A DNA stretch of 64,000 nt. Source: an uncultured Gammaproteobacteria bacterium. Lineage in GTDB: Bacteria > Patescibacteriota > Patescibacteriia > Buchananbacterales > UBA6539. This document shows positions 20,939 to 36,689 of this stretch, piece by piece (position 1 is the first letter of the stretch; each line of letters begins with the position of its first letter). The stretch is from the NCBI GenBank assembly GCA_964497245.1, contig CAZCCC010000001.1, positions 10,297 through 74,296 of the forward strand, read 5' to 3'. The position numbers and the translations under genes were made by a program. Under the pieces are notes generated by a model that was given only the letters and a program-made list of their open reading frames with translations, did no database searches and was not told the DNA's origin.

Positions 20939-20943
20939 AAAAT

Positions 20944-22107
20944 ATGGAAAAACGTAAAATTTGTTTTGTGATTACAAGTCAAATTCATTATGCTAGAAAC
21001 AAGTTGATTATTCAGGAATTAAAAAAACGTGATGATGTAGAATTGCAGTTGGTAATTGCCGGTTCCGCGATATTAAAACAGTATGGCAACGTTGAAAAAC
21101 TCTTAAAAGATGACGGAATTGAATTTCAGAGCAAGGCAACCATAATCGTTGAAGGCGGTAATCCTGTAGCCATGGCTAAAACAGCCGGGTTAGGCTTGAT
21201 TGAATTTGCTTCAATCTTTGAAAATTTAAATCCCGATATCGTATTGCTTAGAGGTGATCGCTATGAAGTTCTTTCGGCTGCGATTGCCGCCGCTTATATG
21301 AATATAACTTTGGCTCATATAGAGGGTGGTGATATCAGCGGTAGCATTGATGAGAGTGTAAGACATGCAATTACTAAATTGTCCAATATACATTTTACAA
21401 CCAATGCCGAATCTAAAGGCCGCGTTATACAAATGGGGGAAGATGAAAAATATGTCTTTGATTTTGGCAGCCCTGATGTTGAATTTGCCGCTATTAATAA
21501 TTTTTCAGTCACGAATGAAGAAATCAATCAAATTGGAGTAGGCATGAAAGAGTTTAATATTAATAATAAATTCTTGATTGTAATACAACATCCGGTTACT
21601 AGCGAAATAAATGAAAATGGAAAAAATATTGAAGAGACGCTAAAAGCGATTTCTGATTTTAAAATGCCGACTCTTTGGTTTTGGCCCAATATTGATGCCG
21701 GCAATGATGAAGTCTCCAATGCCATTAGAAAATTCAGGGAGAATACAGATATTGACAGCTATACCCATTTTATAAAGTATCTTGCCCCGGATAAATTTTT
21801 ATCATTACTTAGAAAAACCTCATGTTTGATCGGCAATTCATCGGCTGGAATTAAAGAATCTTCTTATTTTGGCACTCCTGTTGTAAATATTGGCAGCCGG
21901 CAGAACGGAAGGCTAAAGGGCAATAACTTGTTAGATGTCCAATATGATTCTGAACAGATAAAGAAAGCAATCAAGAAGCAATTAGATAATGGTTATTATC
22001 CTCAAGATAATATATATTTTAAAGGTAATTGCAGCAAACAAATTTCAGATACTTTGGCAAAAATCAAACTGTATACCCAGAAAAAATTTAATGATAAAAT
22101 TAAGTAG
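20944..22107 (+). CDS. neuC: UDP-N-acetylglucosamine 2-epimerase (hydrolysing), NeuC type
   Basis: 387 aa; LLRGDRYEVLSAAIAAAYMNITLAHIEGGDISGSIDESVRHAITKLSNIHFTT is the Epimerase_2 family core; position between neuB and neuA. Confidence 0.75.
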   Translation: MEKRKICFVITSQIHYARNKLIIQELKKRDDVELQLVIAGSAILKQYGNVEKLLKDDGIEFQSKATIIVEGGNPVAMAKTAGLGLIEFASIFENLNPDIVLLRGDRYEVLSAAIAAAYMNITLAHIEGGDISGSIDESVRHAITKLSNIHFTTNAESKGRVIQMGEDEKYVFDFGSPDVEFAAINNFSVTNEEINQIGVGMKEFNINNKFLIVIQHPVTSEINENGKNIEETLKAISDFKMPTLWFWPNIDAGNDEVSNAIRKFRENTDIDSYTHFIKYLAPDKFLSLLRKTSCLIGNSSAGIKESSYFGTPVVNIGSRQNGRLKGNNLLDVQYDSEQIKKAIKKQLDNGYYPQDNIYFKGNCSKQISDTLAKIKLYTQKKFNDKIK

Positions 22108-22113
22108 CGTTTT

Positions 22114-22839
22114 ATGAAAAAAAGATTAAATATTTTAGGCATAATTCCGGCCCGCGGTGGATCCAAGGGGATACCTAAGAAAAATATAAAAATTTTAGGT
22201 GATAAGCCGTTGATTTATTATACGATTAAAAGCGCAAAAAGAAGCGTTTATATAACTGACCTGATTGTGTCTACTGACGACTTGGAGATCGCAAAAATAG
22301 CTGAATCCTGCGGCGCTAATGTTCCTTTTATTCGGCCGAAGGAATTGGCTTTGAATGAAACTCCAATGCTTCCTGTTTTAAGGCATGCGGTTGATTTTAT
22401 GGAAAAAAACAAAAATATTATTTTTGATTATATAGTAATCCTGCAACCGACATCACCTTTTAGACTGCCGGAAGATATAGATAAAACAATAGAAGTAATT
22501 ATTGAAAAAGGCGCCGATAGTGCTGTCAGTCTGGTGGAAGTGGAAAGCCAGTTTCATCCAATGAAAATGAAAAAGTTCGAGGAGCAGAGGGTATTGTCTT
22601 ATACTATTGATGAGCCGGAAGGAATAAATCGTCAGGATTTGCCAAAGGTATATAGGCGAAGCAGTGCAGTTTATGTTCAAAAACGAGATTTGATCGTTAA
22701 AAAGAATCAGTTATATGGTGATTATATTGTCGGACATATTGTGCCGGCAGAAAGATATATTGATATTGATAATGAATTTGATTGGTTAAAGGCAGAATAT
22801 ATGTTAAAAAAATTAAAAGATAGAGGATATAATTATTAA
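22114..22839 (+). CDS. neuA: N-acylneuraminate cytidylyltransferase (CMP-sialic acid synthetase)
   Basis: 241 aa; LGIIPARGGSKGIPKKNIKILGDKPLIYYTI (cf. AIIPARSGSKGLPRKN), CTP_transf_3 family. Confidence 0.8.
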   Translation: MKKRLNILGIIPARGGSKGIPKKNIKILGDKPLIYYTIKSAKRSVYITDLIVSTDDLEIAKIAESCGANVPFIRPKELALNETPMLPVLRHAVDFMEKNKNIIFDYIVILQPTSPFRLPEDIDKTIEVIIEKGADSAVSLVEVESQFHPMKMKKFEEQRVLSYTIDEPEGINRQDLPKVYRRSSAVYVQKRDLIVKKNQLYGDYIVGHIVPAERYIDIDNEFDWLKAEYMLKKLKDRGYNY

Positions 22840-22853
22840 GTAATAAAATTAAT

Positions 22854-23708
22854 ATGGAAGAAAAAAAATTGTCAGATTTTAATTTTGATTTTGAAGCTTT
22901 AGTGAGTTGCCCTTTTTGCAGTAGCCAAGTTATGATACCTAATGGCAGGGTAAAATGGTATAGTTTTGACTTCTGGTATGTTTTTTGTCCATCTTGCGGA
23001 TTAAAATATATGAATCCAAGACCGACAATCCAATCGTATAAAGATTTCTATAAAAAATTTTTTTGGGAACAGAAAATAACCAATACCGGTTTTCATCAAG
23101 AGGGTCAGATGTGGGGGCTTGATAAATATAAATTTGATAATGAAAAAATTTGGGATGCAAAAGATGGAAAAAAAAATCGGATTGAAAAGCAAAAAGCGCA
23201 AAGAATAAAAACTATAATCCCGGTGATTGAAAAAAGTATTAGTATCAACAGCAATTCAGATATTCTTGAAATTGGTTGCGGTTTTGGAGTCACTTTGAAC
23301 GAATTAAGTTTGAAATATAATTGTAAATCTTACGGAATTGAGCCGTCGGAAGAAGCCAGAAAAACTATTTTAGAATATGGCAAGATTAATTTGATTGGCT
23401 ATTATGCTGAGGAAATTGAAGAAATATCAACAAAAGATATAAAGTTTGATGTTATTATATTTTCTCATTCTTTGGAAAATACTGTTGACCCGATAAACAT
23501 AATAAAATACGCAAAATTGTGTTTAAAGAATTCAGGGATCATTTATATTCAAACTCCAAATTTATTGACTTTTGATCAAATGAACCCTTATCATCCTTTC
23601 ATTTTCTCGCAGAATTCTGTTTTGCATTTGGCTGAAAAAAACAATTTAAATTGCAGTATTGAATCTGAGACTATAGATAAAATGTTAGTAACAGTTTTTA
23701 AGAATTAA
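22854..23708 (+). CDS. SAM-dependent methyltransferase with N-terminal Cys4 zinc ribbon
   Basis: 284 aa; CPFCSS...CPSCG zinc ribbon; motif I ILEIGCGFGVTLNELS. Confidence 0.55.
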   Translation: MEEKKLSDFNFDFEALVSCPFCSSQVMIPNGRVKWYSFDFWYVFCPSCGLKYMNPRPTIQSYKDFYKKFFWEQKITNTGFHQEGQMWGLDKYKFDNEKIWDAKDGKKNRIEKQKAQRIKTIIPVIEKSISINSNSDILEIGCGFGVTLNELSLKYNCKSYGIEPSEEARKTILEYGKINLIGYYAEEIEEISTKDIKFDVIIFSHSLENTVDPINIIKYAKLCLKNSGIIYIQTPNLLTFDQMNPYHPFIFSQNSVLHLAEKNNLNCSIESETIDKMLVTVFKN

Positions 23709-23737: not shown

Positions 23738-24421
23738 ATGAGGACAATAAAAATAGGTAAAATAGATGAACAAATCAAAAGTTTATATGATTTTTTTAAA
23801 TTAAAAGAAGGTTCTGAACACATATCTTGCCTCGGTGCTCTACAGGGATTAAATAAAATACTTCAGGATTTAAAACCAAAAAATATTCTTGAGTTTGGTG
23901 GTGGAATAGGGGCATTAAGTTACTTTTGTATGAATAATACAAATGCAAATCTTACTATATATGAAGATAATAGTTTTTGTCTAAATCAGCTTGAAAAAAA
24001 TTTAAGCGCTTTTAAAGAAAGGTATTCAATAATTTCAGATTATAATAATTTTAAGCCACTTCCTTATAAAAATTACGAATTAATTTTGGCGGATGGAGGA
24101 CCATATAATTTAATTAGTGAAATAGTAAAAAATATTAGAGGAATTAGAATAATATTTTTTGAGGGTAGAAGAATACCAATGCAAGTACTTTTTAGAAAAG
24201 CATTGAAGAAAAAATATATATTCAAAACTATAAAATATGAGTATGAAAATAATAACAAAAATACTAAGTGTGCTTATGTTATTTATTGTCAGCCGTGTAA
24301 AAATGTTTTTTTAAGAAAAATAAATTATTATTATCAAGAAATTATTTCATTGATTGATTTTATCAGGATAAGGGGATTTATGAATTATATTAAGTATGAT
24401 TTTTTATCCAAAATTTTATAA
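23738..24421 (+). CDS. Hypothetical protein, possible class I methyltransferase fold
   Basis: 227 aa; NILEFGGGIGALSYF glycine-rich loop, later LILADGGP. Weak. Confidence 0.35.
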   Translation: MRTIKIGKIDEQIKSLYDFFKLKEGSEHISCLGALQGLNKILQDLKPKNILEFGGGIGALSYFCMNNTNANLTIYEDNSFCLNQLEKNLSAFKERYSIISDYNNFKPLPYKNYELILADGGPYNLISEIVKNIRGIRIIFFEGRRIPMQVLFRKALKKKYIFKTIKYEYENNNKNTKCAYVIYCQPCKNVFLRKINYYYQEIISLIDFIRIRGFMNYIKYDFLSKIL

Positions 24422-24445: not shown

Positions 24446-25708
24446 ATGGTAAAAATCTTATATAATAAAATATTAAGTATAATAAGTCGTGTTGAGAAAA
24501 TTGTAAAAGTTGATTTAATATATTATTTAAAAGGTAGTTTTTGGATGAATATGGAACAAGGAGTCTCAACTCTTACCGCTATTATTTTGTCGATTGTATT
24601 TGCTAATTTGCTTTCTAAGGAAACTTATGGGTCATATTCATATATTTTAACAATTGCCAATCTTTTGGCATTTACTACACTGACCAGTATGAATGAAGCA
24701 GTAACAAGATCAGTGGCAAAAGGAAATAATGATTCAGTAATTTCAGCTTTATATACCAAAATTAGATTTGGTTTTTTTGGCAGTATAATAAGTTTAGCGA
24801 TAGCGCTTTATTATTTTATAAACAATTCTTTAGTTTTGGCGATTTGTTTTTTATTTGTTTCATTATTTATTCCTTTTTGGCCTTCGCTCAGTATTTACTC
24901 TGCTTTTTTTAATGGGAAAAGAAATTTTGGACTCTCATCAATTATTGGTGCTGCTAGAAATATTATTACTTCCTTTTTTTTAGTTATGGTAATATTTTTT
25001 ACAAGAAATATTTTTTTGATTATTTTAACATATTTTTTATCATTTTTATTATTTGATTTTTTTTATTTAAAAAAAGTTATTAATAAATTTAAGTTGACAA
25101 ATATTCGTAATCCAGAAACAATTTCTTATGGAAAATATTTAAGTTTCGTAAGGATAATTGGTCTTATTAATAGTAATATTGATAAAATATTAATTTGGAA
25201 TCTGCTTGGTCCGGTTCAAGTGGCAGTTTATTCAATTGCACTGGCGCCAGTTGATAAAATTAAGGGTACAATTGGTAATATCAAATCATTAGCTTTCCCA
25301 AAATTCAGCTTAGCTCCACAGAATCAAATGCAGAAAACGTTAATGGGAAAAATGTTAAAGCTTTTTTTTATTTTAATTCCTGTTGTAGCGACTTATATTA
25401 TATTCATACCTTTTCTTTTTAAAATTTTTTACCCTAAATATTTAGATTCAATTATTTATTCCCAAATACTTTCACTAACTATTTTAGCTACGCCTGAACA
25501 GCTTTTTACCGTTTATTTCAAGGCGCATAAGATGAAAAAAGAAATAGTAATTATGAGCTCGGTTGTACCCTTGATAAATATACTAATAATGGTATTTGCC
25601 GGCGTATTTTTTGGTTTAATTGGTTTGGTAATTGGCAGAGTGCTAGGATTTATTTCTTATTTTCCAGTTGCTTTTTATTTGTTTAAATTTCAGAAATATA
25701 AAGATTAA
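24446..25708 (+). CDS. Oligosaccharide flippase (Wzx-like / polysaccharide biosynthesis protein, MOP superfamily)
   Basis: 420 aa, about 12 hydrophobic segments throughout, no soluble domain; the true start may be an internal Met (e.g. MNMEQG). Confidence 0.55.
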   Translation: MVKILYNKILSIISRVEKIVKVDLIYYLKGSFWMNMEQGVSTLTAIILSIVFANLLSKETYGSYSYILTIANLLAFTTLTSMNEAVTRSVAKGNNDSVISALYTKIRFGFFGSIISLAIALYYFINNSLVLAICFLFVSLFIPFWPSLSIYSAFFNGKRNFGLSSIIGAARNIITSFFLVMVIFFTRNIFLIILTYFLSFLLFDFFYLKKVINKFKLTNIRNPETISYGKYLSFVRIIGLINSNIDKILIWNLLGPVQVAVYSIALAPVDKIKGTIGNIKSLAFPKFSLAPQNQMQKTLMGKMLKLFFILIPVVATYIIFIPFLFKIFYPKYLDSIIYSQILSLTILATPEQLFTVYFKAHKMKKEIVIMSSVVPLINILIMVFAGVFFGLIGLVIGRVLGFISYFPVAFYLFKFQKYKD

Positions 25709-25718
25709 TTATTATAAA

Positions 25719-26639
25719 ATGTTTAAAAAAATAGGACCAGATTTTTTAATAACCGGGCTTGAAAGAAGTGGCACTCACTGGGTTGCCGGTTTACTGAATG
25801 CGCATCCGGAGATTTCTTGTTTTCCGGCCGATTATTTTGATAAAGGTTTTGGTGAATATAATAGAGAAATTATTGGGGAAGTCCATTTATTTAATACTTT
25901 GGCAAGTCTTGAATTGAATACCGAAGATAAGCATACCCGGCCCATATCTGGATATTTAACCAAGCATAATTTGATTTTTGCCGATTTGGCAGCGTTAGAG
26001 GGCAAGGTGCCTAAGGAAGAATTATATAATATGTTTATAAAAAGGTATAATGAGATTTGTGAAGAGAACCGCTATGGCAAAAAAATGGTTGGTGAATCAA
26101 CTCCAGCCTATGTTTTTCACTTAGATTTTATTGATTCATTTTATCCAAATATAAAAAAGCTTTGTATAATCAGAGATCCGAAGGATAAAATAGTATCTTG
26201 GCATTTTAGCAAACTAAGAAAAGGTCAGAAGACCGAGGTTGTTATTACCGATGAATTTATCAAAGAATATTGCGAGAAAACGATTAAAAAAGAATATGAA
26301 AGCCTGCTTGATTATAAAGGCAATATTTACTGTTTTACTTATGAGAGTTTGGCTGAAAATCAAAACGGGGTTTTATGTGATATCCTTTCTTATTTAGATG
26401 TTGCCATTAATGCTGATATTATTAGTCATATGATTAAAGAAGGTTCATTTAAGGAAATGACAGCTAAGGGGAATATTACTGGTGGAAGAGATAATGGACA
26501 AGAAGAGCTACAGAGTCCTTATCGTAAGGGTGTAGTTGGTGACTGGGTAAATCATATGACTAAAAAACAGGCTGAATTGGTGGATGCTATTGTTGGTGAG
26601 GTGAGAAAAATGACTTTTAATAAATATAAAATTTACTAA
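25719..26639 (+). CDS. PAPS-dependent sulfotransferase
   Basis: 306 aa from the ATG at 25719 (the ORF-track start at 25668 overlaps the flippase gene). 5'-PSB loop ITGLERSGTHW (cf. PKSGTTW); 3'-PB motif IIRDPKDKIVSWHFS (cf. RNPKDxxVS). Confidence 0.65.
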   Translation: MFKKIGPDFLITGLERSGTHWVAGLLNAHPEISCFPADYFDKGFGEYNREIIGEVHLFNTLASLELNTEDKHTRPISGYLTKHNLIFADLAALEGKVPKEELYNMFIKRYNEICEENRYGKKMVGESTPAYVFHLDFIDSFYPNIKKLCIIRDPKDKIVSWHFSKLRKGQKTEVVITDEFIKEYCEKTIKKEYESLLDYKGNIYCFTYESLAENQNGVLCDILSYLDVAINADIISHMIKEGSFKEMTAKGNITGGRDNGQEELQSPYRKGVVGDWVNHMTKKQAELVDAIVGEVRKMTFNKYKIY

Positions 26640-26647
26640 GACTACTT

Positions 26648-29437
26648 ATGTTCAAGAAAAATATTAAGATTATTGTTACCTTGGGTCCGTCAACTAAAAC
26701 CATATCAGATTTAAGAAAAATTAAAGATAGGGGCGTAAGTTTTGTTCGTATTAATATGTCGCATTCCAGTATTGATGATCTTAAATATTTTATTAATTTG
26801 GCAAAAACTGTTGATATCCCATTTATTATTGACACTGAAGGTTCTCAAATCAGGACAGGTGATCTAATTGAAAGCAGTATTAATCTGAATGAGAATGACG
26901 AGATAAAGATATATAAAGAGCAAATAGTTGGTGATATCCACAAAATATCAATTAAGCCAAGTTATGTAATAGACCAACTTAAAATTGGTGATATATTGTA
27001 TGTAGATTTTAATGCTTTAATTTTAGAAATTTCAGATATTTCAACTATTTCTGTAGGCTATATTACGGCCAAGGCTATCAATAAAGGCAGTCTGGGACGA
27101 AATAAAGGCGTAGCAATAGATTCATCTGATAATACTAAGTTTGATTTGCCAGTTCTGTCGGAAAAAGATTATCAATCAATCAAGGTAGGTTTAGAAGAGG
27201 GTATTAGTCATATTGCGGCATCATTTATGAGATCTGAGCAGTTTGTTAAAGATGTTAAGATGGCTACGAAAGGCAAGATGAAAATTATTTCAAAAATTGA
27301 GTGCCTTGATGCACTAAATAATTTAGATGAGATTATTAAAGAGTCTGATTTTTTGTTAATTGACAGAGGAGATTTAAGTAAAGAAATTCCAATAGAAAAA
27401 ATTCCATTTTTACAAAAAATAATTCTAAGCAAATCTCGTAATTATAATAAGGAAACTTTTATTGCAACTAATTTATTAGAGACCATGGTTGAAAAGAGTA
27501 ATCCAACCAGAGCGGAAGTTAATGATGTAATTAATGCTATTTTAGATGGTGCTTCTGGTTTAACCCTTTCATCTGAAACAGCAATAGGTAAATATCCAAT
27601 AGCCTGTATTAATATGCTAAATAAATTGATCAAGCAAACAACCTTATTTAATGATATAACTTATCAAAAATCCGGTGATCGGTTAGCTAAAAAGTTATTT
27701 AAGTCAAATTATTTTTTAAGTACAGATTCATCATCTTCTCTAATTTCTCCTCACGGCGGCACCTTAATAAATAGGATTTCTGATGGATCGTTTAGTAAGC
27801 AATATTTAGATTCTTTAAAAAAAATTGTAGTAAGTCAAAATATTTCAATGGATATTGAGCAGATAGCAGTTGGTACTTTTAGCCCCCTGGAAGGTTTTAT
27901 GATAAAACGTGATTTTAATAGTGTTCTCAATAAAATGAGACTTGTAAACGGAGCAGTATGGACAATTCCCATAGTTTTGGATGTCTCAAAAGAACATGCT
28001 GACAATATATCTTTAGGTGAAGATATTATGCTAATTGGTGATGGCGGCTTGATAGCATTAATCAATGTAGAGGATAAATACTCATTTAATAAAAAAGAAG
28101 TTTCTTTAAAACTTTATGGTACTACTAGTAATAAACATCCCGGTGTTTTGTGGGTGAATAGCCTAGATCAAATATTACTGGGAGGGAAAATTACTCTTCT
28201 CAAAAGAAGAGAATCAGAGTTTCAGGAATATATTCTGACTCCCAGACAAACAAGAAGGTTGTTTGAAGAAAAAAATTGGTCTAGGGTTGTGGGATTTCAT
28301 ACTAGAAATGTTATTCACCGCAGTCATGAATTTATTCAAATGAAAGCTTTGGAGGTTGAAAATTGTGATGGGCTTTTTGTTCATCCAGTAATTGGCAAAA
28401 AGAAGCCTGGTGATTTTTATGCCAAATACATTATTGAAAGTTATAAGCTTATGGTTAAAAATTTTTACCCAGCCGATAAGGTATTCTTTGCCACTTTGCC
28501 GACTTATTCTAGATATGCCGGTCCCAGAGAAGCAGTTTTTACCGCTTTGTGCCGCAAGAACTTCGGTTGCAGCCATTTTATTGTTGGTCGTGACCACACT
28601 GGAGTTGGTAATTTTTACAATCCTACGGCGTCTCATGATATTTTTGATAAATTTCCTGATTTAGGCATGAAAATAATTAAATTTAATAAGATATTTTACT
28701 CAAAAAAATATGACGGTTATATTCATGAGACTGAGGATTCTGATCATTTGGAAGAAGATAAGCTTCATATAAGCGGCACAGAAGCTAGAAAAATGTTTGA
28801 GGAAGGGGATATTCCGCCATGCTGGTTTATGCGTCCGGAAATATCACAATTTATTTCAAATGCAATTTGCAACAAAGAAGAAGTTTTTATTAAAAAAGAG
28901 TCAGTTGAAAAAGGAATAGTTCTTTGGTTTACTGGTTTAAGTGGCTCAGGAAAAACCACGATTGCCGGTGAATTAGAAAATCGATTAAAAACTCTTAGAA
29001 AGAAAGTTGTGATAATTGATGGCGATACCGTAAGGTCTACAATTAATAAAAATCTTGGTTTTTCCCGAGAAGACATAAAAGAAAATAATTTAATAATTGC
29101 AAAATTAGCTGAGGAAGCAGCTTTTAAAAATGATTTTGTGGTTGTACCAATTATTTCTCCTTACCAAGAAGATAGAAACATGGCTCGCTCATTAATTGGC
29201 TCTCGATTTTTTGAAATTTTTATAAATTGTTCTATTGATAAATGTATTAAAAGAGATCCCAAGGGTTTTTATAAGAAAGCTTTAGAAGGAAAAATCAATA
29301 ATTTTATAGGGCTTAGTAAAAGTAATCCGTATGAGATTCCAATAAATCCGGATTTAGAAATAAAAACTGATATTCATAGTCTTGATGAAAATATTCTTTT
29401 AATTTTAGATTTTTTAAAATCTAAGGCCTTATTGTAA
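26648..29437 (+). CDS. Tri-domain protein: pyruvate-kinase-like catalytic (A+B) domains, ATP sulfurylase, and APS kinase (PAPS synthase with an N-terminal PK module)
   Basis: 929 aa. Residues 1-340 align along their whole length with pyruvate kinase: KIIVTLGP, VRINMSHSS, IIDTEGSQIRTG, IISKIECLDAL...LLIDRGDLSKEIP, ATNLLETMVEKSNPTRAEVNDVINAILDGASGLTLSSETAIGKYP. Residues about 360-750 are ATP sulfurylase: LISPHGGTLINRI, GFHTRNVIHRSHEF, VGRDHTGVG. Residues about 760-929 are APS kinase: LWFTGLSGSGKTTIA, CIKRDPKGFYKKALEGKINNFIGLSKSNPYE. Confidence 0.8.
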   Translation: MFKKNIKIIVTLGPSTKTISDLRKIKDRGVSFVRINMSHSSIDDLKYFINLAKTVDIPFIIDTEGSQIRTGDLIESSINLNENDEIKIYKEQIVGDIHKISIKPSYVIDQLKIGDILYVDFNALILEISDISTISVGYITAKAINKGSLGRNKGVAIDSSDNTKFDLPVLSEKDYQSIKVGLEEGISHIAASFMRSEQFVKDVKMATKGKMKIISKIECLDALNNLDEIIKESDFLLIDRGDLSKEIPIEKIPFLQKIILSKSRNYNKETFIATNLLETMVEKSNPTRAEVNDVINAILDGASGLTLSSETAIGKYPIACINMLNKLIKQTTLFNDITYQKSGDRLAKKLFKSNYFLSTDSSSSLISPHGGTLINRISDGSFSKQYLDSLKKIVVSQNISMDIEQIAVGTFSPLEGFMIKRDFNSVLNKMRLVNGAVWTIPIVLDVSKEHADNISLGEDIMLIGDGGLIALINVEDKYSFNKKEVSLKLYGTTSNKHPGVLWVNSLDQILLGGKITLLKRRESEFQEYILTPRQTRRLFEEKNWSRVVGFHTRNVIHRSHEFIQMKALEVENCDGLFVHPVIGKKKPGDFYAKYIIESYKLMVKNFYPADKVFFATLPTYSRYAGPREAVFTALCRKNFGCSHFIVGRDHTGVGNFYNPTASHDIFDKFPDLGMKIIKFNKIFYSKKYDGYIHETEDSDHLEEDKLHISGTEARKMFEEGDIPPCWFMRPEISQFISNAICNKEEVFIKKESVEKGIVLWFTGLSGSGKTTIAGELENRLKTLRKKVVIIDGDTVRSTINKNLGFSREDIKENNLIIAKLAEEAAFKNDFVVVPIISPYQEDRNMARSLIGSRFFEIFINCSIDKCIKRDPKGFYKKALEGKINNFIGLSKSNPYEIPINPDLEIKTDIHSLDENILLILDFLKSKALL

Positions 29438-29448
29438 ATGATTTAATT

Positions 29449-30252
29449 ATGCCAAAATTTTCTCCAGAAATTTTAATAGCAATAAAAGCGGCTATAAAGG
29501 CTTCAGTAGAAATAAAAAAAATATATAGTAAAGATTTTTTATTGCAGTTTCGGGATGGCAATCCAGTTTCCGAGGCTGATACAGTAAGCAATAAAATAAT
29601 AAAGAAATTTTTAAGTAAAACGGAAATCGACATTTTTTCAGAAGAAGATTTAGACAATTTTAGCCGTTTATCAAAAAGGAAAATTTGGATTATTGATCCG
29701 TTAGATGGTACTTTAGATTTTATTAATAGGACTGGAGAATTTTCTATTATTATTGGACTTGTCGAAAATAAAATTTCTGTTGGCGGAGTAATATATAAGC
29801 CAATTGGTGATACATTATATGTGGCAGAAAAAAATAAAGGAGCTTATCGGTGTAAAGATAAGATTTGGGATAAGATATCTGTCAGTTCAATCTCTGAGTT
29901 AGTAGAAGCAAGGGTGGTAATGAGCAGACATCACTTGTCAACAGAGGATAAAGAATTTTTAAGTCACTTGAAAATTAATAATTATATACAATGCGGGAGC
30001 TGTGGGTTAAAAGCTGCATCAATAGCTGAAGGAAAGGCGGAATTATATTTTACAAGTACTAATAAGATAAAGCAGTGGGATACTTGTGCGGCAAGCTGTT
30101 TAATTGCAGAAGCTGGTGGAGAGATTACAGATATGTTTGGGCAATCATTAGTTTATAATATAAAAAAAAATAACCACGATAATGGCATCCTAGTGTCTAA
30201 TGGAATAATTTATCAAGAAGTAATTAACAAATTAAAAATTTTACAAAAGTAA
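29449..30252 (+). CDS. cysQ: Inositol-monophosphatase-family 3'(2'),5'-bisphosphate nucleotidase (CysQ-like PAP phosphatase)
   Basis: 267 aa; IWIIDPLDGTLDFI (W-x-x-DPLDGT) and WDTCAASCLIAEAGG (WD..A motif). Confidence 0.7.
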   Translation: MPKFSPEILIAIKAAIKASVEIKKIYSKDFLLQFRDGNPVSEADTVSNKIIKKFLSKTEIDIFSEEDLDNFSRLSKRKIWIIDPLDGTLDFINRTGEFSIIIGLVENKISVGGVIYKPIGDTLYVAEKNKGAYRCKDKIWDKISVSSISELVEARVVMSRHHLSTEDKEFLSHLKINNYIQCGSCGLKAASIAEGKAELYFTSTNKIKQWDTCAASCLIAEAGGEITDMFGQSLVYNIKKNNHDNGILVSNGIIYQEVINKLKILQK

Positions 30253-30267
30253 ATTAAAATTAAATTT

Positions 30268-31656
30268 TTATTGCCCCTTCCTCGTTAAAATAGTTTTAAT
30301 AGTTTTTAGCATTATGCTCAAATCAAGCGCCAATGATCGATTTTTAATATAATATAAATCATACTGTAATTTTTCTAGTGTTTCTTCTTTAGATCCACCG
30401 TAAGCCGGCCCGGCAACTTGCGCCCAGCCGGTTAGGCCGGGTTTAACCAATAATCTTTCCTTGTAAAAGGGAATTTCTTTTTCCAGTTCTTGGACAAATT
30501 CCGGTCTTTCGGGTCTTGGTCCAATTAAGCTCATTTCATTTTTTAAAATATTAATCAGCTGGGGAATTTCGTCAATTCTGGTTTTTCTGAAAAATTTTCC
30601 AACTTTAGTTATCCTTGAATCGTTTTTTGCCGCCCATTGCGGACCGTTGACTTCGGCATTATTTATCATTGTTCGGAATTTTATTGCCAAAAAATTTTTT
30701 CCATCCTTGCCGGTTCTGATTTGTTTGAAAAATACTGGACCCTTGCTTTCAAGTTTTATTACCAAGGCAATTAATGGCCAAAATATCATAGTAACCAATA
30801 GCATAAATACTGAAAATGTAATATCAAAAAATCTTTTTAATGTATCATAATTTTTTTTGCTTTTTTCAGTCAGATTTTCTAGAAACCAAACTCGTTCAAT
30901 TGTAGCGACAGGAATTTTGCCGGTTATTTTTTCGTAAAAATTTGTAATGTCAAAAAAACCGATTTTGAGAGGCAGACATTCAAACAAGCTTTTTGCAAGA
31001 TTGTCGTTTTCACGCGGATGTATTGTTGATATGACAGTATTTATGTCGTTGTCTTGGCAAATTAACTTTAAATTTTTAAAATCATCATTTACCACCAAAC
31101 TTTCAAAATCTTTTAAAACTTCAATCCCTGGTTCAAGTATTATTTTTTTTATCCTTAATCCGAGTTGAGGCTTTCTGTTTACTTCTTTTATTATTTGTTC
31201 AACCAGATCATTGAATCCTATTATTGCAACCGCGTTAAAAGCCATAGAAGAAGTGGCTAAATCATATGTTAGTCGCCATAGGTAAATTAAAGTTCCGCTT
31301 ACTAAGATATATATGAATAAGACTCTTTGGGGCTTGATGCTAAAAATATTATTTTGTCCGATGTAAAAAAATACAATAGTTATAAGACTGCTGATTAAAA
31401 TACTTCTCATAATCCGCACTAAAAGGCTTATTTTGCTTTGACTTCTGTCTATTTCGTAAAGGTCGTCTATGTAAAAAATTATCAGCCAGACTGCAAATAC
31501 CACTGAAAAAGGCCAGAGATGTTTTTCCCAGATTTGTCCATTGAATTCATTTTGATACCTAAGTGCCAAAGTTAAAAATAAAGAAAAATAAAGGATTATT
31601 ATATCCCCAAGCAATAATAAATATTTTTTCTTTTTTACCAATGAATCATTTGCCAT
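30268..31656 (-). CDS. Polyprenyl-phosphate hexose-1-phosphate transferase (bacterial sugar transferase; WbaP/PglC-like initiating enzyme)
   Basis: 462 aa; N-terminal TM helices, C-terminal KRFFDITFSVFMLL...KQIRTGKDGKNFLAIKFRTM...DEIPQLINILKNEMSLIGPRPERPEF. Confidence 0.8.
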   Translation of the reverse strand: MANDSLVKKKKYLLLLGDIIILYFSLFLTLALRYQNEFNGQIWEKHLWPFSVVFAVWLIIFYIDDLYEIDRSQSKISLLVRIMRSILISSLITIVFFYIGQNNIFSIKPQRVLFIYILVSGTLIYLWRLTYDLATSSMAFNAVAIIGFNDLVEQIIKEVNRKPQLGLRIKKIILEPGIEVLKDFESLVVNDDFKNLKLICQDNDINTVISTIHPRENDNLAKSLFECLPLKIGFFDITNFYEKITGKIPVATIERVWFLENLTEKSKKNYDTLKRFFDITFSVFMLLVTMIFWPLIALVIKLESKGPVFFKQIRTGKDGKNFLAIKFRTMINNAEVNGPQWAAKNDSRITKVGKFFRKTRIDEIPQLINILKNEMSLIGPRPERPEFVQELEKEIPFYKERLLVKPGLTGWAQVAGPAYGGSKEETLEKLQYDLYYIKNRSLALDLSIMLKTIKTILTRKGQ

Positions 31657-31750: not shown

Positions 31751-34447
31751 ATGATTTTAGAAGAAAAAAGCCATCAAATTGGAAATTTTTTGACGCATTT
31801 TATCAAATTTGGCGTTTTTTTTATTTTGTTTTTGCCAATGGTGATGAACAGTGGATTTTTTTTCCCTTTTGTTGTCCCAAAAAATATACTTTTTAGGATT
31901 AGTGTTGAAATTATTTTTGCTTCATATCTGCTTTTGCTTTATTTTAAACCCGAATACCGTCCGAAATTGAATAATTTGATTTGGGCAGTTTTGGCATTTT
32001 TTGGATTAATTTTTATTTCAACTTTCAGCGGAATTGGCGTTTATCTAAGTTTTTGGGGAAATTATGAGAGAATGGGTGGGCTTTTTCATCATTTGCATCT
32101 TTTGGCTTATTTTTTAGTCTTAATAAGTGTTATAAAAAGAAAAGACGACTGGGATCAATTTTTTTCTTTTTCAATTTTTGTAAGCACATTGATGTCTTTT
32201 TTGGCTTATGCTCAATGGCTTGAGTTGCCTTTTTTGCTTCCTTCTTCGGGCGGAGCCAGGCTTACGGGCATGGTTGGCAATGCAACTTATCTTGCGGCTT
32301 ATCTGATATTTAATGTTTTTTTTGTCCTTTATTTTTTAATGAAGCCTGAAAAATTCAAGATAAAACTTTTTTTATACAGTTTTTTAGTTTTTGATTTATT
32401 TTTAATCCTTAGCGGAGTTTTGGCTAGAATTTATCGTTTTTCAGATTGGGGCAGCTTTAATTTTTTAAAAGCTTCAATAATCAAAGATAGTTTATATTAT
32501 CCTTGGTTTCTTTACCTTTTTTTGGCTTTTCAAATTTTAATATTTTTAACTTGGTATTTCCGTTTTAAAAAATACGCAATTTCTTGTTTGCTTTGGGTTA
32601 TTTTTATTTTTCAGGCATGGGTGATTTTAAATACCCAAACCAGGGGAGCGGTTTTAGGGCTTTTGGCTGGTTTTGCCGTTTTTTTAATTATTTTATTTTT
32701 CAGCTGCAGTAATAAGAAAAGAAAAATTTTTTATCTTTCTACTTCCGGATTAATTTTATTTTTTCAGCTTTTGGCTTTTGGCTGGGGCAGATCAATAGCT
32801 GATTTTTTGAAAGAAAGTGAGCTTAAATTTTTTAGCGATCTGGGAATAGTTTTAGCTAGGGTTTCAGGCTCTATTTCCTTAGTAGGCTTTTATTTAAGCC
32901 TGCTTGGAATTTCTATTGTTTGTATTTATTTTTTTAGAGAAAAAAGAAAAAAGATAATAGTTACTTTTTTTGTTTTTACTTTACTCTTGCTGCCAATTTT
33001 TGGAATTTTTAGTAGAAGTATCTTTTCAAAAACAGACAACCATGTTTTTGGTCGATTTCTTAATTTTTCCAATATTAAAGATAAAACCACTCAGTCGCGA
33101 TTACTTACATGGGAAGCAAGCTGGAAAGGCCTTACCGAAAGTCCCAAAACTTTTTTGATCGGTTATGGTTTGGAGAATTATTATTACATTTTTAATAAAT
33201 ATTTTCCGGTTGAAATTTATAAAAACGCTGGATCGCAAATTTGGTTTGATCGGCCTCATAACATTATTTTTGATGTTGCTTCAACTGCCGGAGTCTTGGG
33301 CCTTTGTTGCTATCTAGTTATTTTAGGTCTGGCAATTTTTAGCTTGATTAAAAATTATAAGTTAAATAAGTCAGTCCGCCGAACCTGGCTTTTTGTTTGT
33401 TTGCTTTTTGCCTATTTAATTCAGAATTTTTTTGTTTTTGATACTTTGAATACGGAAATTTTGTTTTTTTTGGTTTTAGCAATGGTTTGTTTTGAAAAAA
33501 ATCTATATATTACACGCAAGGATGACAAACAAAATTCAATCACGAAAATTTTTAGCTATATTTATCCGGTAATTTCGGTAATAATTGTAGTTGCTGGACT
33601 GATTGTTAATATTAATATAGCCAAAGCCAATATTCTTCTGGTTGAGGCGATTCATCCAATTAAGATATCAAAACACTGTTCGGAAAAAATTGATTGTTTC
33701 CGTATAGCTATTGATAAGTCAATAGTCGGCCGATTTGAAGCTCGCCAACAGCTGGGAAGTTATGTTTTATCCAGCTTGGGAAGTAACAGAATTTTAGAAA
33801 GCAAAAAAAGTGACGCGGTAAACTTTACTGCTAACGAACTCAGAAAAAGCGTTGAGGAAGAGCCGCTTAATGTTAGGCATTATCTTTTTTTGGCCGGATT
33901 TTATAATAGTACAGCCAATTTTAACAGGCAGAATCCGGCAAAAACTCTTGGTTTATTGGAAAAAGCCAAGGTTCTCAGTCCGACCAGACCTCATATATAT
34001 TATGAGATGGGCAAGGCATATTATCTTTTAGGCGATTTTGATAATTCAATAAATAGTTTTAAAGAGGCAATTGAATTGGCGCCTAATGTGATTGATGCTC
34101 ATTTAAACCTTCTTAGATCATATATAATTTTCGGACAAAGTGATTTATTTGAAGAATATTTTGAAAAAATGAAACAGGAGTTTAATTGGGAACCGAAAGC
34201 AGAAGAATACGCAATAATGGCAAGCTTATTTCAGATAAGCAAGAATTATGATAAAATGATTGAACTGCAGCTTCAGGCCGTCAAATTGGAACCCAGCTTT
34301 GAAAATTATAAGAATTTGGTGGTTTTTTATGCCTTGGCACAAAAATCAGACAAGGCTGAAGATGTTATTTCTGAAATAAAAAAAATTAGTTCGGCTGCCG
34401 CCTTGGAGCTGGAAAAAATTTTACAAGAATTAAATAATTTGAAATAA
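31751..34447 (+). CDS. O-antigen ligase/polymerase-like membrane protein (Wzy_C) with C-terminal TPR repeats
   Basis: 898 aa; about 12 TM segments in the N-terminal 600 aa; C-terminal roughly 250 aa has TPR-like periodicity (MGKAYYLLGDFDNSINSFKEAIELAPN...). Confidence 0.55.
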   Translation: MILEEKSHQIGNFLTHFIKFGVFFILFLPMVMNSGFFFPFVVPKNILFRISVEIIFASYLLLLYFKPEYRPKLNNLIWAVLAFFGLIFISTFSGIGVYLSFWGNYERMGGLFHHLHLLAYFLVLISVIKRKDDWDQFFSFSIFVSTLMSFLAYAQWLELPFLLPSSGGARLTGMVGNATYLAAYLIFNVFFVLYFLMKPEKFKIKLFLYSFLVFDLFLILSGVLARIYRFSDWGSFNFLKASIIKDSLYYPWFLYLFLAFQILIFLTWYFRFKKYAISCLLWVIFIFQAWVILNTQTRGAVLGLLAGFAVFLIILFFSCSNKKRKIFYLSTSGLILFFQLLAFGWGRSIADFLKESELKFFSDLGIVLARVSGSISLVGFYLSLLGISIVCIYFFREKRKKIIVTFFVFTLLLLPIFGIFSRSIFSKTDNHVFGRFLNFSNIKDKTTQSRLLTWEASWKGLTESPKTFLIGYGLENYYYIFNKYFPVEIYKNAGSQIWFDRPHNIIFDVASTAGVLGLCCYLVILGLAIFSLIKNYKLNKSVRRTWLFVCLLFAYLIQNFFVFDTLNTEILFFLVLAMVCFEKNLYITRKDDKQNSITKIFSYIYPVISVIIVVAGLIVNINIAKANILLVEAIHPIKISKHCSEKIDCFRIAIDKSIVGRFEARQQLGSYVLSSLGSNRILESKKSDAVNFTANELRKSVEEEPLNVRHYLFLAGFYNSTANFNRQNPAKTLGLLEKAKVLSPTRPHIYYEMGKAYYLLGDFDNSINSFKEAIELAPNVIDAHLNLLRSYIIFGQSDLFEEYFEKMKQEFNWEPKAEEYAIMASLFQISKNYDKMIELQLQAVKLEPSFENYKNLVVFYALAQKSDKAEDVISEIKKISSAAALELEKILQELNNLK

Positions 34448-34448
34448 A

Positions 34449-36689
34449 ATGAAATTAAAAAGAACATTGTTTTTACTATTTTTTATTTTTGCTGTTTTTT
34501 TTATTAATTGTAAAGAGCCTTCTGCCTCTGCGACTGAAAATAAAAATTTTCGCTTAGGTGAAGCCCTGCTTAAATTTAAAGGAAATCCCGAAATTTATAA
34601 AATTAGTTTTTCTGAGGATGCAAACATTGAAACCGTAATAAGCGAATATGCTATTATTGGAGAAATAGAATACATTGAACCCAATTATATTGTAAAAACT
34701 GTTGCTTTTCCTAATGATCCAGACTACAATTTGCAGTGGTATTTTACTCCGATTAATGCCAGAGATTTTTGGATTAAAGAATCTCTTTTAAGAGAGCAGG
34801 AAAATAATCATATTAGGCCAGTTATTGCCATTTTGGATACAGGTGTTGATTTAAATCATCCTGATTTAAAAAATAATATTTGGATAAATAAAAAAGAGAT
34901 AGATGGAAATGGTATTGATGATGATAAAAACGGCTATATTGATGATATAAATGGTTGGAATTTTGTTGAGAATAATTCAGACCCTAATCCGGTAGTATCT
35001 CCTTATTATGATCAAAGTGCAGTAAAACATGGTACAATTGTTGCAGGAATTTCGGCCGCAGTCACCAATAACGGACAGGGAATTGCCGGGATGAGCCGAT
35101 TTGCCCAGATAATGGCCTTAAGGGTTTTGGACAGCGACGGTACCGGCGATGTTTATTCGGTGATAAGGGCTATAGATTATTCAATTAGAAATAAAGCTGA
35201 TCTAATAAACATGAGTTTTGTTGGTGATACCTATAGCCAGGGGCTTTATGACGCAATAAAGAGGGCATATGACAGTGGAATTTTAGTAGTGGCAGCCGCT
35301 GGCAACACCGATCCTAATGCCAATGGCGTTGATTTAGATAAAGTGAGACATTATCCGGTTTGTTATGACGGTCCAAACGGTGAAAATATGGTAATCGGGG
35401 TTGCTTCTTTGGACCGGAGTTTAAAGAAATCCAAGTTTTCTAATTACGGGAGCTGTATTGATTTAGTTGCTCCTGGAGAAGAATTTTATTCTACACAAGT
35501 CTACGATTCAAATGTTTTTGGTTTTAATAGATATTATGGCGGTTATTGGTCGGGAACTTCGGTTTCCGCTCCGCTAGTAAGCGGAACTTTGGCGACAATT
35601 AAAGCTCTGCGTCCGAATTTAAGACCTGACCAGATAAGAGATTTGGTTTTAAATAACACTATTGATATATATCCATACAATAAAGAATATCAAGGTAAGC
35701 TTGGAAGCGGAATGCTTGATTCAACAAAAGCGCTGGAAGGAGTATTGGATAAAAAGTCGGAAGTAGTCGGTGACTTAAAAAACAGCAGCTATATTGTAGC
35801 CGGACTGGGGCTTGGTTCTCATCCGCAGCTTAAAATTTTAAGACCGGACGGATCAGTTTTTAAGGCTTTTTATGCTTATAATCCTAATTTTAGCGGCCTT
35901 ATTAGTGTCGCAGTCGGCGATGTAACCGGCGACGGCAAACAAGAAATTATCACTGCTCCGGGTCCAGGAGGCGGACCTCATATTAGAATATTTAATATTG
36001 AAGGTCAACCAATTTCGCAATTTTTTGCTTGGCAAGAGAGTTTTCGTGGCGGAGTTAATGTCGCAGTCGGCGATGTAACCGGCGACGGCAAGAGGGAAAT
36101 AATTGTCGGCTTAGGTAGCGGCGCTCAGCCGGAAGTCAAAGTCTTTGATTATAAAGGTAGGTTAATAAGCAGTTTTTTGGCTTATGATGAAAAGTTTAGA
36201 GGTGGAGTTAAAGTGGCAGTTGGTGATGTTAATAAAAATAAAATAGCTGAAATAGTGACCGGTGCCGGATCAGGCGGCGGTCCTCATGTTAGAATTTTTA
36301 ATTATCAAGGGTCGCTAATTTCTCAATTTTTTGTTTTTAATCATTATGTCACTAAGGGAATAAATATAGCTTGCGGTGATCTTTCTGGCAATGGTCAAGC
36401 AGAGATAGTTGTTGCCTTGGAAAAAGAATCATTGCCAATAGTTAGAATTTTTAATTATAAAGGAGATAAATTAAATGATTTTTTTGCTTACCAATCTTCT
36501 TATCATGGTTTGAATCTGGCAATAGGTGATATTGACGGCGACAAAATTTCGGAAATTATTACCGGGATAGGAGTTGGTGGCAAGCCGGAAATTAAAATTT
36601 TTGATTTCTTCGGAAAAAGTAAAATTGATTTTCTGGCTCATACTGAAAATTATTCCGGAGGTGCAAGGGTTGGAATTATTAATTACTAA
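34449..36689 (+). CDS. Secreted subtilisin-like serine protease (S8) fused to FG-GAP/VCBS-type beta-propeller repeats
   Basis: 746 aa; signal/TM region, catalytic triad motifs AILDTGVD, HGTIVAGI, GTSVSAPLVSGT; at least 6 repeats of VAVGDVTGDGK.EII...G.GGGPHIRIFN. Confidence 0.8.
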   Translation: MKLKRTLFLLFFIFAVFFINCKEPSASATENKNFRLGEALLKFKGNPEIYKISFSEDANIETVISEYAIIGEIEYIEPNYIVKTVAFPNDPDYNLQWYFTPINARDFWIKESLLREQENNHIRPVIAILDTGVDLNHPDLKNNIWINKKEIDGNGIDDDKNGYIDDINGWNFVENNSDPNPVVSPYYDQSAVKHGTIVAGISAAVTNNGQGIAGMSRFAQIMALRVLDSDGTGDVYSVIRAIDYSIRNKADLINMSFVGDTYSQGLYDAIKRAYDSGILVVAAAGNTDPNANGVDLDKVRHYPVCYDGPNGENMVIGVASLDRSLKKSKFSNYGSCIDLVAPGEEFYSTQVYDSNVFGFNRYYGGYWSGTSVSAPLVSGTLATIKALRPNLRPDQIRDLVLNNTIDIYPYNKEYQGKLGSGMLDSTKALEGVLDKKSEVVGDLKNSSYIVAGLGLGSHPQLKILRPDGSVFKAFYAYNPNFSGLISVAVGDVTGDGKQEIITAPGPGGGPHIRIFNIEGQPISQFFAWQESFRGGVNVAVGDVTGDGKREIIVGLGSGAQPEVKVFDYKGRLISSFLAYDEKFRGGVKVAVGDVNKNKIAEIVTGAGSGGGPHVRIFNYQGSLISQFFVFNHYVTKGINIACGDLSGNGQAEIVVALEKESLPIVRIFNYKGDKLNDFFAYQSSYHGLNLAIGDIDGDKISEIITGIGVGGKPEIKIFDFFGKSKIDFLAHTENYSGGARVGIINY
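35907..36091 (+). repeat. Exact 32-bp intragenic repeat (two copies, 35907-35938 and 36060-36091) corresponding to FG-GAP repeat modules
   Basis: gtcgcagtcggcgatgtaaccggcgacggcaa occurs twice. Confidence 0.8.

Follow-up and report, generated by a model that had tools for sequence, protein, structure and literature searches.

A putative sulfation cassette with a pyruvate kinase-fused PAPS synthase in a surface-glycan region of a CPR bacterium

The 64-kb stretch of a source genome analysed here (the window; all coordinates are window positions) contains three consecutive genes, which very probably form a dedicated cassette for sulfation from 3'-phosphoadenosine 5'-phosphosulfate (PAPS). They encode a putative sulfotransferase, a fusion of pyruvate kinase (PK), ATP sulfurylase (sulfate adenylyltransferase, SAT) and adenosine 5'-phosphosulfate (APS) kinase (APSK) domains, and a CysQ-like phosphatase, which is predicted to act on 3'-phosphoadenosine 5'-phosphate (PAP). 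A first-pass annotation had described three genes of a sulfation cycle at this position, and all of them were found there on the + strand. Only 8 and 11 bp lie between the genes, which form the 3' end of a co-directional run of around 16 kb, which begins near 14.5 kb; the next gene past the cassette is convergent. The mechanical open reading frame (ORF) of the sulfotransferase begins earlier, at TTG 25668; the start was set at ATG 25719, because homologues have 300 to 310 amino acids (aa) and an identical database protein has 306. The cassette has the following features:

25719-26639, + strand: putative cytoplasmic PAPS-dependent sulfotransferase, 306 aa (Pfam Sulfotransfer_1, 9e-23; Sulfotransfer_3, 4e-16)
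25761-25781, + strand: 5'-PSB motif ERSGTHW, aa 15-21 (alignment to SULT2A1/2B1)
26088-26105, + strand: VGESTP with the candidate catalytic base E126 (at least 90% conserved)
26172-26198, + strand: 3'-PB motif RDPKDKIVS, aa 152-160 (alignment to SULT2A1/2B1)
26523-26546, + strand: third PAPS motif RKGVVGDW, aa 269-276 (alignment to SULT2A1/2B1)
26648-29437, + strand: PK-SAT-APSK fusion, 929 aa (Pfam and NCBIfam; four Pfam matches)
26657-27607, + strand: pyruvate kinase A/B (barrel and lid) domain, aa 4-320 (PF00224, 1.9e-71)
27743-28858, + strand: PUA_2 and ATP sulfurylase catalytic domain, aa 366-737 (PF14306, PF01747)
28295-28330, + strand: clade-specific sulfurylase site FHTRNVIHRSHE (motif statistics)
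28586-28603, + strand: sulfurylase site GRDHTG (motif statistics)
28910-29365, + strand: APS kinase domain, aa 755-906 (PF01583, 3.1e-49; motifs GLSGSGKTT, DGDTVR and KGFYKKA)
29449-30252, + strand: CysQ-like 3'(2'),5'-bisphosphate nucleotidase (putative PAP phosphatase), 267 aa (PF00459 Inositol_P, 9e-48)
29695-29712, + strand: DPLDGT, aa 83-88, metal-binding motif of the inositol monophosphatase (IMPase) family
30076-30090, + strand: WDTCA, aa 210-214, IMPase motif

The sulfotransferase has the P-loop, the 3'-phosphate motif, the RKGxxGDW motif and the alpha/beta fold of PAPS-dependent enzymes. The first-pass annotation had named RSGTHW and RDPKDKIVS and had allowed that key PAPS-binding residues might be missing; both motifs were located, and together with the third they align with the PAPS-binding motifs of SULT2A1/2B1 in a sequence comparison with solved structures, so that this objection falls away. 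Across 43 homologues (28-81% identical), G18, W21, H29, G125, R152, D156, S160, R269, K270, G271 and D275 are invariant, and S17 is conserved in at least 90%. The position of the catalytic His of cytosolic sulfotransferases (SULTs) is occupied by Ser127, and the neighbouring, nearly invariant E126, which follows the invariant G125, is a candidate for the catalytic base. The AF2 model of the protein is of high quality (pLDDT 90.5, pTM 0.89) and contains no membrane segment or signal peptide. A Foldseek search with this model gave 116 PDB matches at E<=1e-3, the best 50 of which are all sulfotransferases; the tyrosylprotein sulfotransferases (TPSTs) TPST1/2 come first (TM 0.56-0.58) and are followed by the cytosolic SULTs, with a probability of 1.0 to both groups.

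The structural matches could indicate that the module sulfates an acceptor other than a glycan, such as protein tyrosine (e.g., in a pilin or an S-layer protein), a membrane lipid or a small molecule. In line with this, TPSTs lead the fold comparison, the N-terminal segment GLERSGTHWVAGLLNAHPEISC resembles the corresponding TPST segment including an Arg in place of the P-loop Lys (E 0.3, not significant alone), and the sequence-level structure matches are steroid and bile-salt SULTs. However, the catalytic Glu of TPSTs is not conserved, the CGEE motif being replaced by CFPAD. The enzyme shares the fold and the three PAPS-binding motifs with SULTs and TPSTs (PF00685/PF13469), but is only 16-20% identical to them and has neither the catalytic His of the former nor the catalytic Glu of the latter. 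Homology to a glycan sulfotransferase was not found either, since the sole NCBIfam match is NoeE with 28.8 bits against a cut-off of 500. No functionally named or characterised member was found among around 114 clusters homologous to the sulfotransferase, and the acceptor specificity can not be read from homology.

The second gene had been described as a "tri-domain" PAPS synthase, which is correct according to Pfam; the third domain, which the first-pass annotation had left unnamed, is a pyruvate kinase. The full-length AF2 model of the fusion has a pLDDT of 91.1 and a pTM of 0.79, and no PDB chain among the structure matches spans both PK and SAT. The PK domain contains the motifs RINMSH, DTEGSQIR, SKIE, DRGDLS, ATNLLETM and LSSETA. 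It aligns over its full length with the pyruvate kinases of Geobacillus stearothermophilus and Escherichia coli, and the catalytic set is complete: the RxNxSH and DTxG motifs, the lid-domain Lys, the catalytic Lys-x-Glu, the Asp of RGDL, the Thr of ATxxLExM and the Glu of ETA are all kept, including K216, E218, D242, T274, R34/N36/S38 and D62/T63. Among 71 homologues with 51-77% identity, R34, N36, S38, H39, R69, K153, K216, E218, D242, T274 and E310 are invariant, and D62 and T63 are conserved in at least 90%. The roles of these residues (catalytic Lys, Mg ligands, PEP-site Thr and others) are presumed to be those described in the structural literature on pyruvate kinases. In the predicted model, the A/B domain superposes on PykF with 2.8-3.3 Å. 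That the PK match reflects a generic TIM-barrel or a domain that utilises phosphoenolpyruvate (PEP) was considered and rejected, as the alignment is full length (positions 2-327 out of 328) and includes every catalytic residue. The score for TIGR01064 (291.5) lies under the cut-off of 306.4. The PK match stops at around aa 340, and the fusion has no match to PK_C (PF02887). Like PykF and the G. stearothermophilus enzyme, the protein has A/B domains with a complete catalytic set, and comparable short pyruvate kinases without a C domain exist (NF005234, 352 aa); unlike PykF-type enzymes, it lacks the C-terminal effector/tetramerisation domain, carries Gln at the K+-dependence position and is fused to sulfate-activating domains. 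This Gln lies in DTEGSQIR (26831-26854) and is found in essentially all family members; the residue preceding the Gly is Glu or Gln in place of Lys. We take Glu at the K+-dependence position to mark K+-dependent and Lys K+-independent pyruvate kinases, and the cation dependence of the domain may be unusual.

These features are relevant to the question of whether the PK domain regenerates ATP in the service of sulfate activation. Alternatively, it could be the ordinary glycolytic PK of the cell in a fortuitous fusion, or it could have a structural or regulatory function, for instance as a sensor of PEP or energy charge that gates sulfate activation. The absence of the C-terminal allosteric domain, the change from Glu to Gln at the K+ site and the frequent replacement of the Ser in the LSGETA motif by Ala would fit such a role. 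However, the residues that are invariant across a wide divergence include the catalytic Lys, the two Mg ligands, the Thr of the PEP site and the Arg, His and Lys of the nucleotide site, which speaks for catalysis and not for scaffolding.

The sulfurylase part consists of a PUA_2 domain (2.7e-43, aa 366-520) and an ATP-sulfurylase domain (2.3e-76, aa 527-737) and exceeds the cut-offs of two curated models (TIGR00339, 359.5 against 322.95; NF003166, 434.9 against 387). Its closest solved relative is the ATP sulfurylase of Methanothermococcus thermolithotrophicus (8a8d; E 9e-98, TM 0.93, rmsd 2.2 Å), a stand-alone enzyme with the canonical FQTRN and GRDHAG motifs, which is reportedly part of an assimilatory pathway. 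In the fusion, FHTRNVIHRSH and GRDHTG replace the FQTRN and GRDHAG of characterised enzymes, whereas HxxH and RDH are kept. The changes from Gln to His and from Ala to Thr, at positions that presumably contact the sulfate group as in the structure of the yeast enzyme, are fixed in 83 of 84 PK-fused members. An exhaustive HMMER search with the SAT domain alone against 1.84 billion representatives gave 678 matches at E<=1e-30. Among the best 150 of these, the PK-fused proteins have the His variant in 59 cases and the canonical Gln in 1, whereas the non-fused proteins have His in 18 and Gln in 55. The His/Thr site is therefore a signature of the PK-associated clade, and site and fusion have stayed together in evolution; as this is one evolutionary lineage, the association is not independent evidence of a coupling between the two domains.

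The APS kinase domain has the Walker A and DGD motifs and a TIGR00455 score of 174, above the cut-off of 138.7. The fusion scores 429 with NF004040, the equivalog model for bifunctional Sat/CysC proteins, under the cut-off of 669; its architecture differs from that model by the N-terminal PK domain. As in the bifunctional enzyme of Aquifex aeolicus (2gks, NF004040) and in animal PAPS synthases, SAT and APSK are present in one chain, in the order seen in Aquifex, and the catalytic HxxH, GRDHxG, P-loop and DGD motifs are shared; the additional PK and the altered sulfate-site residues set the window enzyme apart. In the third protein, the motifs DPLDGT and WD..A were found as previously described. 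Its CysQ score (TIGR01331, 171.2 bits) is under the cut-off of 228.8, but CysQ is still the best IMPase subfamily; the next model from a different subfamily is HisN (106.6). A link of this protein to PAPS metabolism is seen in related loci, in which CysQ orthologues are fused to APS kinase (L007, L043, L080) or to PK-SAT-APSK (L021), and CysQ adjoins the fusion in 14 loci.

Envelope-glycan biosynthesis genes fill nearly all of the window between 0.9 and 56 kb, a Wzx/Wzy region of around 55 kb. The position of the cassette after a Wzx-like flippase and the neuBCA genes, on which the first-pass annotation had based its glycan reading, was confirmed; two methyltransferase genes that it had not mentioned lie between neuA and wzx. 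The genes closest to the cassette are:

19853-20938, + strand: NeuB-family synthase (Pfam NeuB; NCBIfam NeuB below cut-off)
20944-22107, + strand: NeuC-type hydrolysing UDP-GlcNAc 2-epimerase (Pfam Epimerase_2; NeuC_NnaA 372.6, above the cut-off of 235.9)
22114-22839, + strand: NeuA-like CMP-sugar cytidylyltransferase (Pfam CTP_transf_3; PseF below cut-off)
22854-23708 and 23738-24421, + strand: two S-adenosylmethionine (SAM)-methyltransferase genes (Methyltransf_23/11, 1.7e-14; MTS, 8e-4, weak)
24446-25708, + strand: Wzx-type (MOP family) flippase, directly upstream of the sulfotransferase (PF01943 Polysacc_synt, 1.9e-13)
30268-31656, - strand: initiating sugar-phosphate transferase, Bac_transf (PF02397, 8e-68), kept in the closest relative
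31751-34447, + strand: Wzy_C (O-antigen polymerase/ligase-like) and TPR membrane protein, 898 aa (PF04932, 1.9e-13, and TPR), kept in the closest relative

Judging from their predicted products, the genes from 19853 to 22839 are nonulosonic (sialic-acid-like) sugar genes. The region also encodes a UDP-sugar dehydrogenase, numerous glycosyltransferases of the GT4 and GT2 families, an AsnB-like amidotransferase, polysaccharide deacetylases and a glycerophosphotransferase-like protein. The cassette and Bac_transf are followed by the Wzy_C-TPR protein and an S8 peptidase; GtrA, epimerases, dTDP-rhamnose genes and PMT_2 glycosyltransferases complete the set. The gene content of a sulfated-polysaccharide cluster is thereby present, namely a sulfotransferase, PAPS synthesis and cysQ together with glycosyltransferases, a flippase, a polymerase and an initiating transferase. 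The host had been called CPR-like. This label, which refers to the candidate phyla radiation (CPR), is justified, because the named close homologues of MurA (58354-59658; 70-79% identity) come from Buchananbacteria, Parcubacteria, Falkowbacteria and Paceibacterota, all of them Patescibacteria.

For a survey of related loci, ORFs were called in all loci and then searched with purpose-built hidden Markov models (HMMs), and the counts refer to the 48 loci in which each flank extends over at least 5 kb. The CysQ HMM was built from domain envelopes only, as a self-iterated version had drifted onto fusion proteins (133 matches) and was discarded. A sulfotransferase gene lies within 5 kb of the fusion in 35 of the 48 loci and directly adjacent in 20; the former number is a lower bound, since two loci scored without a sulfotransferase have Gal-3-O-sulfotransferase-like neighbours, which escaped the HMM. 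In 13 loci CysQ is encoded within 5 kb, and 19 loci have a NeuB-family gene within 10 kb. Besides these, the products most often encoded nearby are SDR epimerases, NeuA-like cytidylyltransferases, DegT aminotransferases, NeuC, Capsule_synth proteins, flippases, methyltransferases and HisF/HisH-like amidotransferases, a set that by annotation is the gene content of decorated nonulosonic-acid glycans. "Rosetta-stone" fusions of APSK+CysQ, CysQ+APSK, APSK+sulfotransferase and PK+SAT+APSK+CysQ were also seen. In the closest relative (L001, with a 77% identical synthase), the order NeuB-NeuC-NeuA-methyltransferase-sulfotransferase-fusion-CysQ ... Bac_transf-Wzy is the same as in the window, including the adjacency of methyltransferase and sulfotransferase. 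Because the gene order recurs in this relative and in dozens of species-level genomes, the arrangement is not due to chance. Neighbourhood, fusions and the order in L001 support the view that the genes supply PAPS specifically to sulfotransferases, in most cases within glycan loci.

The survey also bears on an assimilatory role, in which the fusion and CysQ would supply PAPS for reduction to sulfite/sulfide for cysteine synthesis and the sulfotransferase would be incidental. The visible sequence is 64 kb of a genome, and cysH/cysI could be located elsewhere. CysH-like genes occur in two related loci, L003 (with CysD and CysN) and L083, and a metagenomic survey lists sat in CPR and DPANN among the sulfur-cycle genes (PMC12153355). 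However, as the first-pass annotation had stated, no APS/PAPS reductase or sulfite reductase was found among the window ORFs of at least 100 aa, and a CysH/CysD HMM gave no match over all six-frame ORFs of the window. CysH-like genes are present in 2 of the 48 loci, in none of them within 5 kb, compared with a sulfotransferase in at least 35, and in relatives gene fusions join the APS kinase with a sulfotransferase and with CysQ. Moreover, the genes are part of a glycan operon, away from cys genes. To our knowledge, cysteine biosynthesis from sulfate is generally missing from CPR genomes. An assimilatory role is hence very improbable, and the earlier preference for dedicated sulfation holds.

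The related locus L003:1048-11656, on a 1.03-Mb contig, contains a CysH-like PAPS reductase, CysD, CysN, a 383-aa short-chain dehydrogenase/reductase (SDR), NeuB, a 408-aa sulfotransferase, an extra APS kinase, a PK-SAT-APSK fusion and CysQ in one nonulosonic-acid cluster. The CysH-like protein has 219 aa, is encoded beside CysD and CysN and scores 180 bits with NF002537, above the cut-off of 154. By annotation, this locus combines two sulfate-activating systems with a reductase, and the SDR might be a sulfite-using, sulfoquinovose-type synthase.

From the domain identities, the intact catalytic motifs, the folds, the operon structure and the conserved linkage to sulfotransferases and glycan genes, we infer what each enzyme does, in which direction and to what end the PK reaction runs, and what the acceptor is, which together give a scheme of five steps. 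The SAT domain would convert sulfate and ATP to APS and pyrophosphate (PPi), and the APS kinase domain would form PAPS and ADP from APS and a second ATP. The fused PK domain would use PEP to convert this ADP back to ATP with release of pyruvate, keeping ADP low, so that one PEP pays for one of the two ATPs. The sulfotransferase would then transfer the sulfate group to a hydroxyl of a glycan repeat unit or an activated sugar, leaving PAP, which the CysQ-like phosphatase would cleave to AMP and Pi, thereby removing an inhibitory product. As the sulfotransferase is soluble, sulfation is expected on the cytoplasmic face of the membrane, before flipping by Wzx and polymerisation by Wzy, and the substrate is likely a lipid-linked glycan. 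We regard this scheme as a whole, a self-contained PAPS sulfation cassette in a Wzx/Wzy-type surface-glycan operon of a CPR bacterium, as reasonably probable.

A glycan is the likely acceptor, judging from the position of the genes; that the sulfated sugar is the sialic-acid-like residue is pure conjecture. The non-glycan acceptors introduced above gain some ground from Flavobacterium sp. Leaf82, in which the synthase gene follows a non-ribosomal peptide synthetase (NRPS) gene. The location of the sulfotransferase gene between wzx and the synthase gene in one operon, however, speaks against them. Orthologous sulfotransferases (40-81% identical) recur beside NeuB/NeuA, epimerase and glycosyltransferase genes in many lineages, and other members of the synthase family pair with Gal-3-O-sulfotransferase-like enzymes. 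A non-glycan acceptor is thus judged unlikely for the window. In both cultured carriers (Leaf82, L056:1804-12772; [Flexibacter] sp. ATCC 35103, L059), PK-SAT-APSK is the last gene, after a 2442-aa NRPS (C-A-T-C-A-T-TE) and a 301-aa ORF without a Pfam match, an arrangement that suggests sulfation of a non-ribosomal peptide in these Bacteroidota.

The PK-sulfurylase architecture is common to more than 120 clusters, which the sources name "sulfate adenylyltransferase" or "pyruvate kinase", and a scan of one genome per GTDB species gave 80 loci. The carriers include many CPR lineages and DPANN archaea (Woesearchaeota, Nanoarchaeia, Pacearchaeota), and outside these groups Chloroflexi, Acidobacteriota, Planctomycetota, Omnitrophota and Actinobacteria as well as the two Bacteroidota mentioned above. 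Some have large genomes, such as an Ardenticatenaceae member (10.4-Mb contig), an acidobacterium (5.8-Mb contig) and Flavobacterium. Among 82 non-redundant loci, 47 encode PK-SAT, 34 PK-SAT-APSK and 1 PK-SAT-APSK-CysQ, and in 19 (around a quarter) an APS kinase is absent within 10 kb. The family also has variants: P0010 (1341 aa) and P0080 (1019 aa) are longer with extra domains, which in P0080 are nucleotidyl-transferase domains, and P0254 (725 aa) has the reversed order SAT-PK. In three Chloroflexi loci (L047:2828-4519, L054:14093-15787, L055:9842-11605), proteins with a SAT-like domain and an APS kinase, but without both sulfurylase motifs, adjoin PK-SAT; they resemble APS kinases whose SAT domain has degenerated. 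A non-catalytic sulfurylase in the PK-SAT proteins of these loci was considered and rejected, since the two active-site motifs are missing from the SAT-APSK partner instead.

The rationale for an ADP-recycling PK comes from human PAPSS1, which in vitro produces almost no PAPS unless PK and PEP remove ADP, because a dead-end E-ADP-APS complex forms (PMC9885120). This rationale is experimental but indirect, and we give the PK domain about an even chance of recycling ADP. The alternative of a glycolytic, structural or regulatory PK draws further on the labelling of family members as "pyruvate kinase" and on the fact that fusion to SAT alone is commoner than to SAT-APSK. On the other hand, the fusion travels with sulfation genes and not with glycolytic genes, and its carriers include large-genome bacteria, which would be expected to own a standard PK. 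Together with the invariant catalytic residues, this makes the alternative rather unlikely.

Several points weigh against the five-step scheme. ADP recycling alone is insufficient to account for the fusion, because SAT, the main partner of PK, yields no ADP, and PK is joined to SAT more constantly than to APSK, with 47 of the 82 loci encoding PK-SAT without a fused APSK. Without channelling or allosteric coupling, the fusion would bring no thermodynamic gain, and the Gln-to-His and Ala-to-Thr changes at the sulfate-contacting positions are unexplained. The best fold matches of the sulfotransferase are of protein-tyrosine and small-molecule types and not carbohydrate ones, and the fusion of Flavobacterium sp. 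Leaf82 does not follow glycan genes. Moreover, no sulfate transporter (in Pfam scans) or pyrophosphatase was found in the window. Given the partnership with SAT and the altered site, ADP recycling may not be the whole story. Sulfate activation, a very unfavourable reaction, is otherwise driven by removal of PPi and APS (ordinary Sat) or by GTP hydrolysis (CysDN). More tentatively, the PK-fused His-variant SAT could represent a mechanistically distinct third way, in which PEP-derived ATP is channelled or PK turnover is allosterically coupled to the altered sulfate site; we consider this rather unlikely.

Rhizobial NodPQ/NodH and LpsS/KpsS and mycobacterial CysNC/Stf/CysQ are comparable sulfation systems. 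Another parallel is found in Cobetia marina KMM 1449, whose chemically proven sulfated capsule is associated with a cluster containing cysNC, cysD, cysQ, a sulfate permease and a sulfotransferase (PMC11766843). In both systems, a sulfotransferase, PAPS-synthesis genes and cysQ are located among glycosyltransferase, nucleotide-sugar and export genes, with the shared logic that PAPS is made and used and PAP is removed. However, clusters of the Cobetia type have the GTP-coupled CysD/CysN(C) and a sulfate permease, whereas the window encodes a homo-oligomeric-type Sat fused to PK and APSK and no transporter; and the window cassette belongs to a CPR host, with a predicted sulfated product. The first-pass annotation had called sulfated glycans unusual in bacteria and, to its knowledge, undescribed in CPR-like organisms. 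Bacterial cassettes of sulfotransferase, PAPS and cysQ genes inside polysaccharide clusters are already established, as Cobetia shows; the second part of the statement agrees with the literature searched, in which no report on CPR/DPANN sulfation or sulfotransferases and none on a PK-sulfurylase fusion was found, most subscription journals lying outside the coverage. In comparison with known cassettes, the activating enzyme, a PK-fused His-variant Sat-CysC instead of CysDN, and the host lineage are different. In chemical terms the cassette is ordinary, although its host is unusual; the natural fusion of PK to a PAPS synthase, its altered site and its breadth across CPR and DPANN are the noteworthy part.

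If this reading is correct, CPR bacteria and DPANN archaea, which are ultra-small and depend on hosts, invest PEP and ATP in sulfate esters of their surface glycans. In other systems, such esters provide strong negative charge and specific recognition, which would give a testable hypothesis on host interaction. Nature would also have made the combination of PK, sulfurylase and APS kinase that biocatalysis assembles by hand for PAPS: the engineered cascades share the rationale of ADP removal, but are man-made mixes of separate enzymes (PMC9885120), whereas the window encodes one natural polypeptide with a predicted function. A single-chain PK-SAT-APSK enzyme could then serve enzymatic sulfation, and it is open to experiments through Flavobacterium sp. 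Leaf82 and [Flexibacter] sp. ATCC 35103, the cultured carriers. Many "pyruvate kinase" and "sat" calls in CPR and DPANN genomes would be one sulfation enzyme; glycolytic PK and the capacity for sulfur cycling may thus be overestimated in metabolic reconstructions of these lineages, since pipelines label the fusion "pyruvate kinase" or "sulfate adenylyltransferase".

Further observations were made in the remainder of the window, in which no tRNA genes were found. Rubrerythrin and desulfoferrodoxin are encoded, which suggests that the host is an anaerobe. Seven ORFs of the glycan region have no Pfam match (7233-8138, 11806-12966, 15335-16099, 17495-18889, 45177-47276 on the - strand, 48942-49460 and 51586-52275); five of them were also scanned with NCBIfam and gave no match, and the one on the - strand has 699 aa. 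After the Wzy_C and TPR protein (898 aa) comes an S8 subtilase of 746 aa that carries FG-GAP repeats (the two span 31751-36689); they are also located downstream of the sulfation genes in L001 and may form a conserved pair for surface processing. Among the dTDP-sugar genes, one encodes a HIT-family protein (HinT-like, 139 aa, 50111-50530); certain HIT enzymes use adenylyl-sulfate or nucleotide-sugar phosphoramidates as substrates. A 512-aa protein with a PEP-utilizers mobile domain is encoded at 61219-62757, and a protein of around 960 aa with cytidylyltransferase-like, PPDK_N and PEP-utilizers domains lies near the fusion in 6 loci, including L043:17601-20492, and could be another PEP-using enzyme of these glycan regions.

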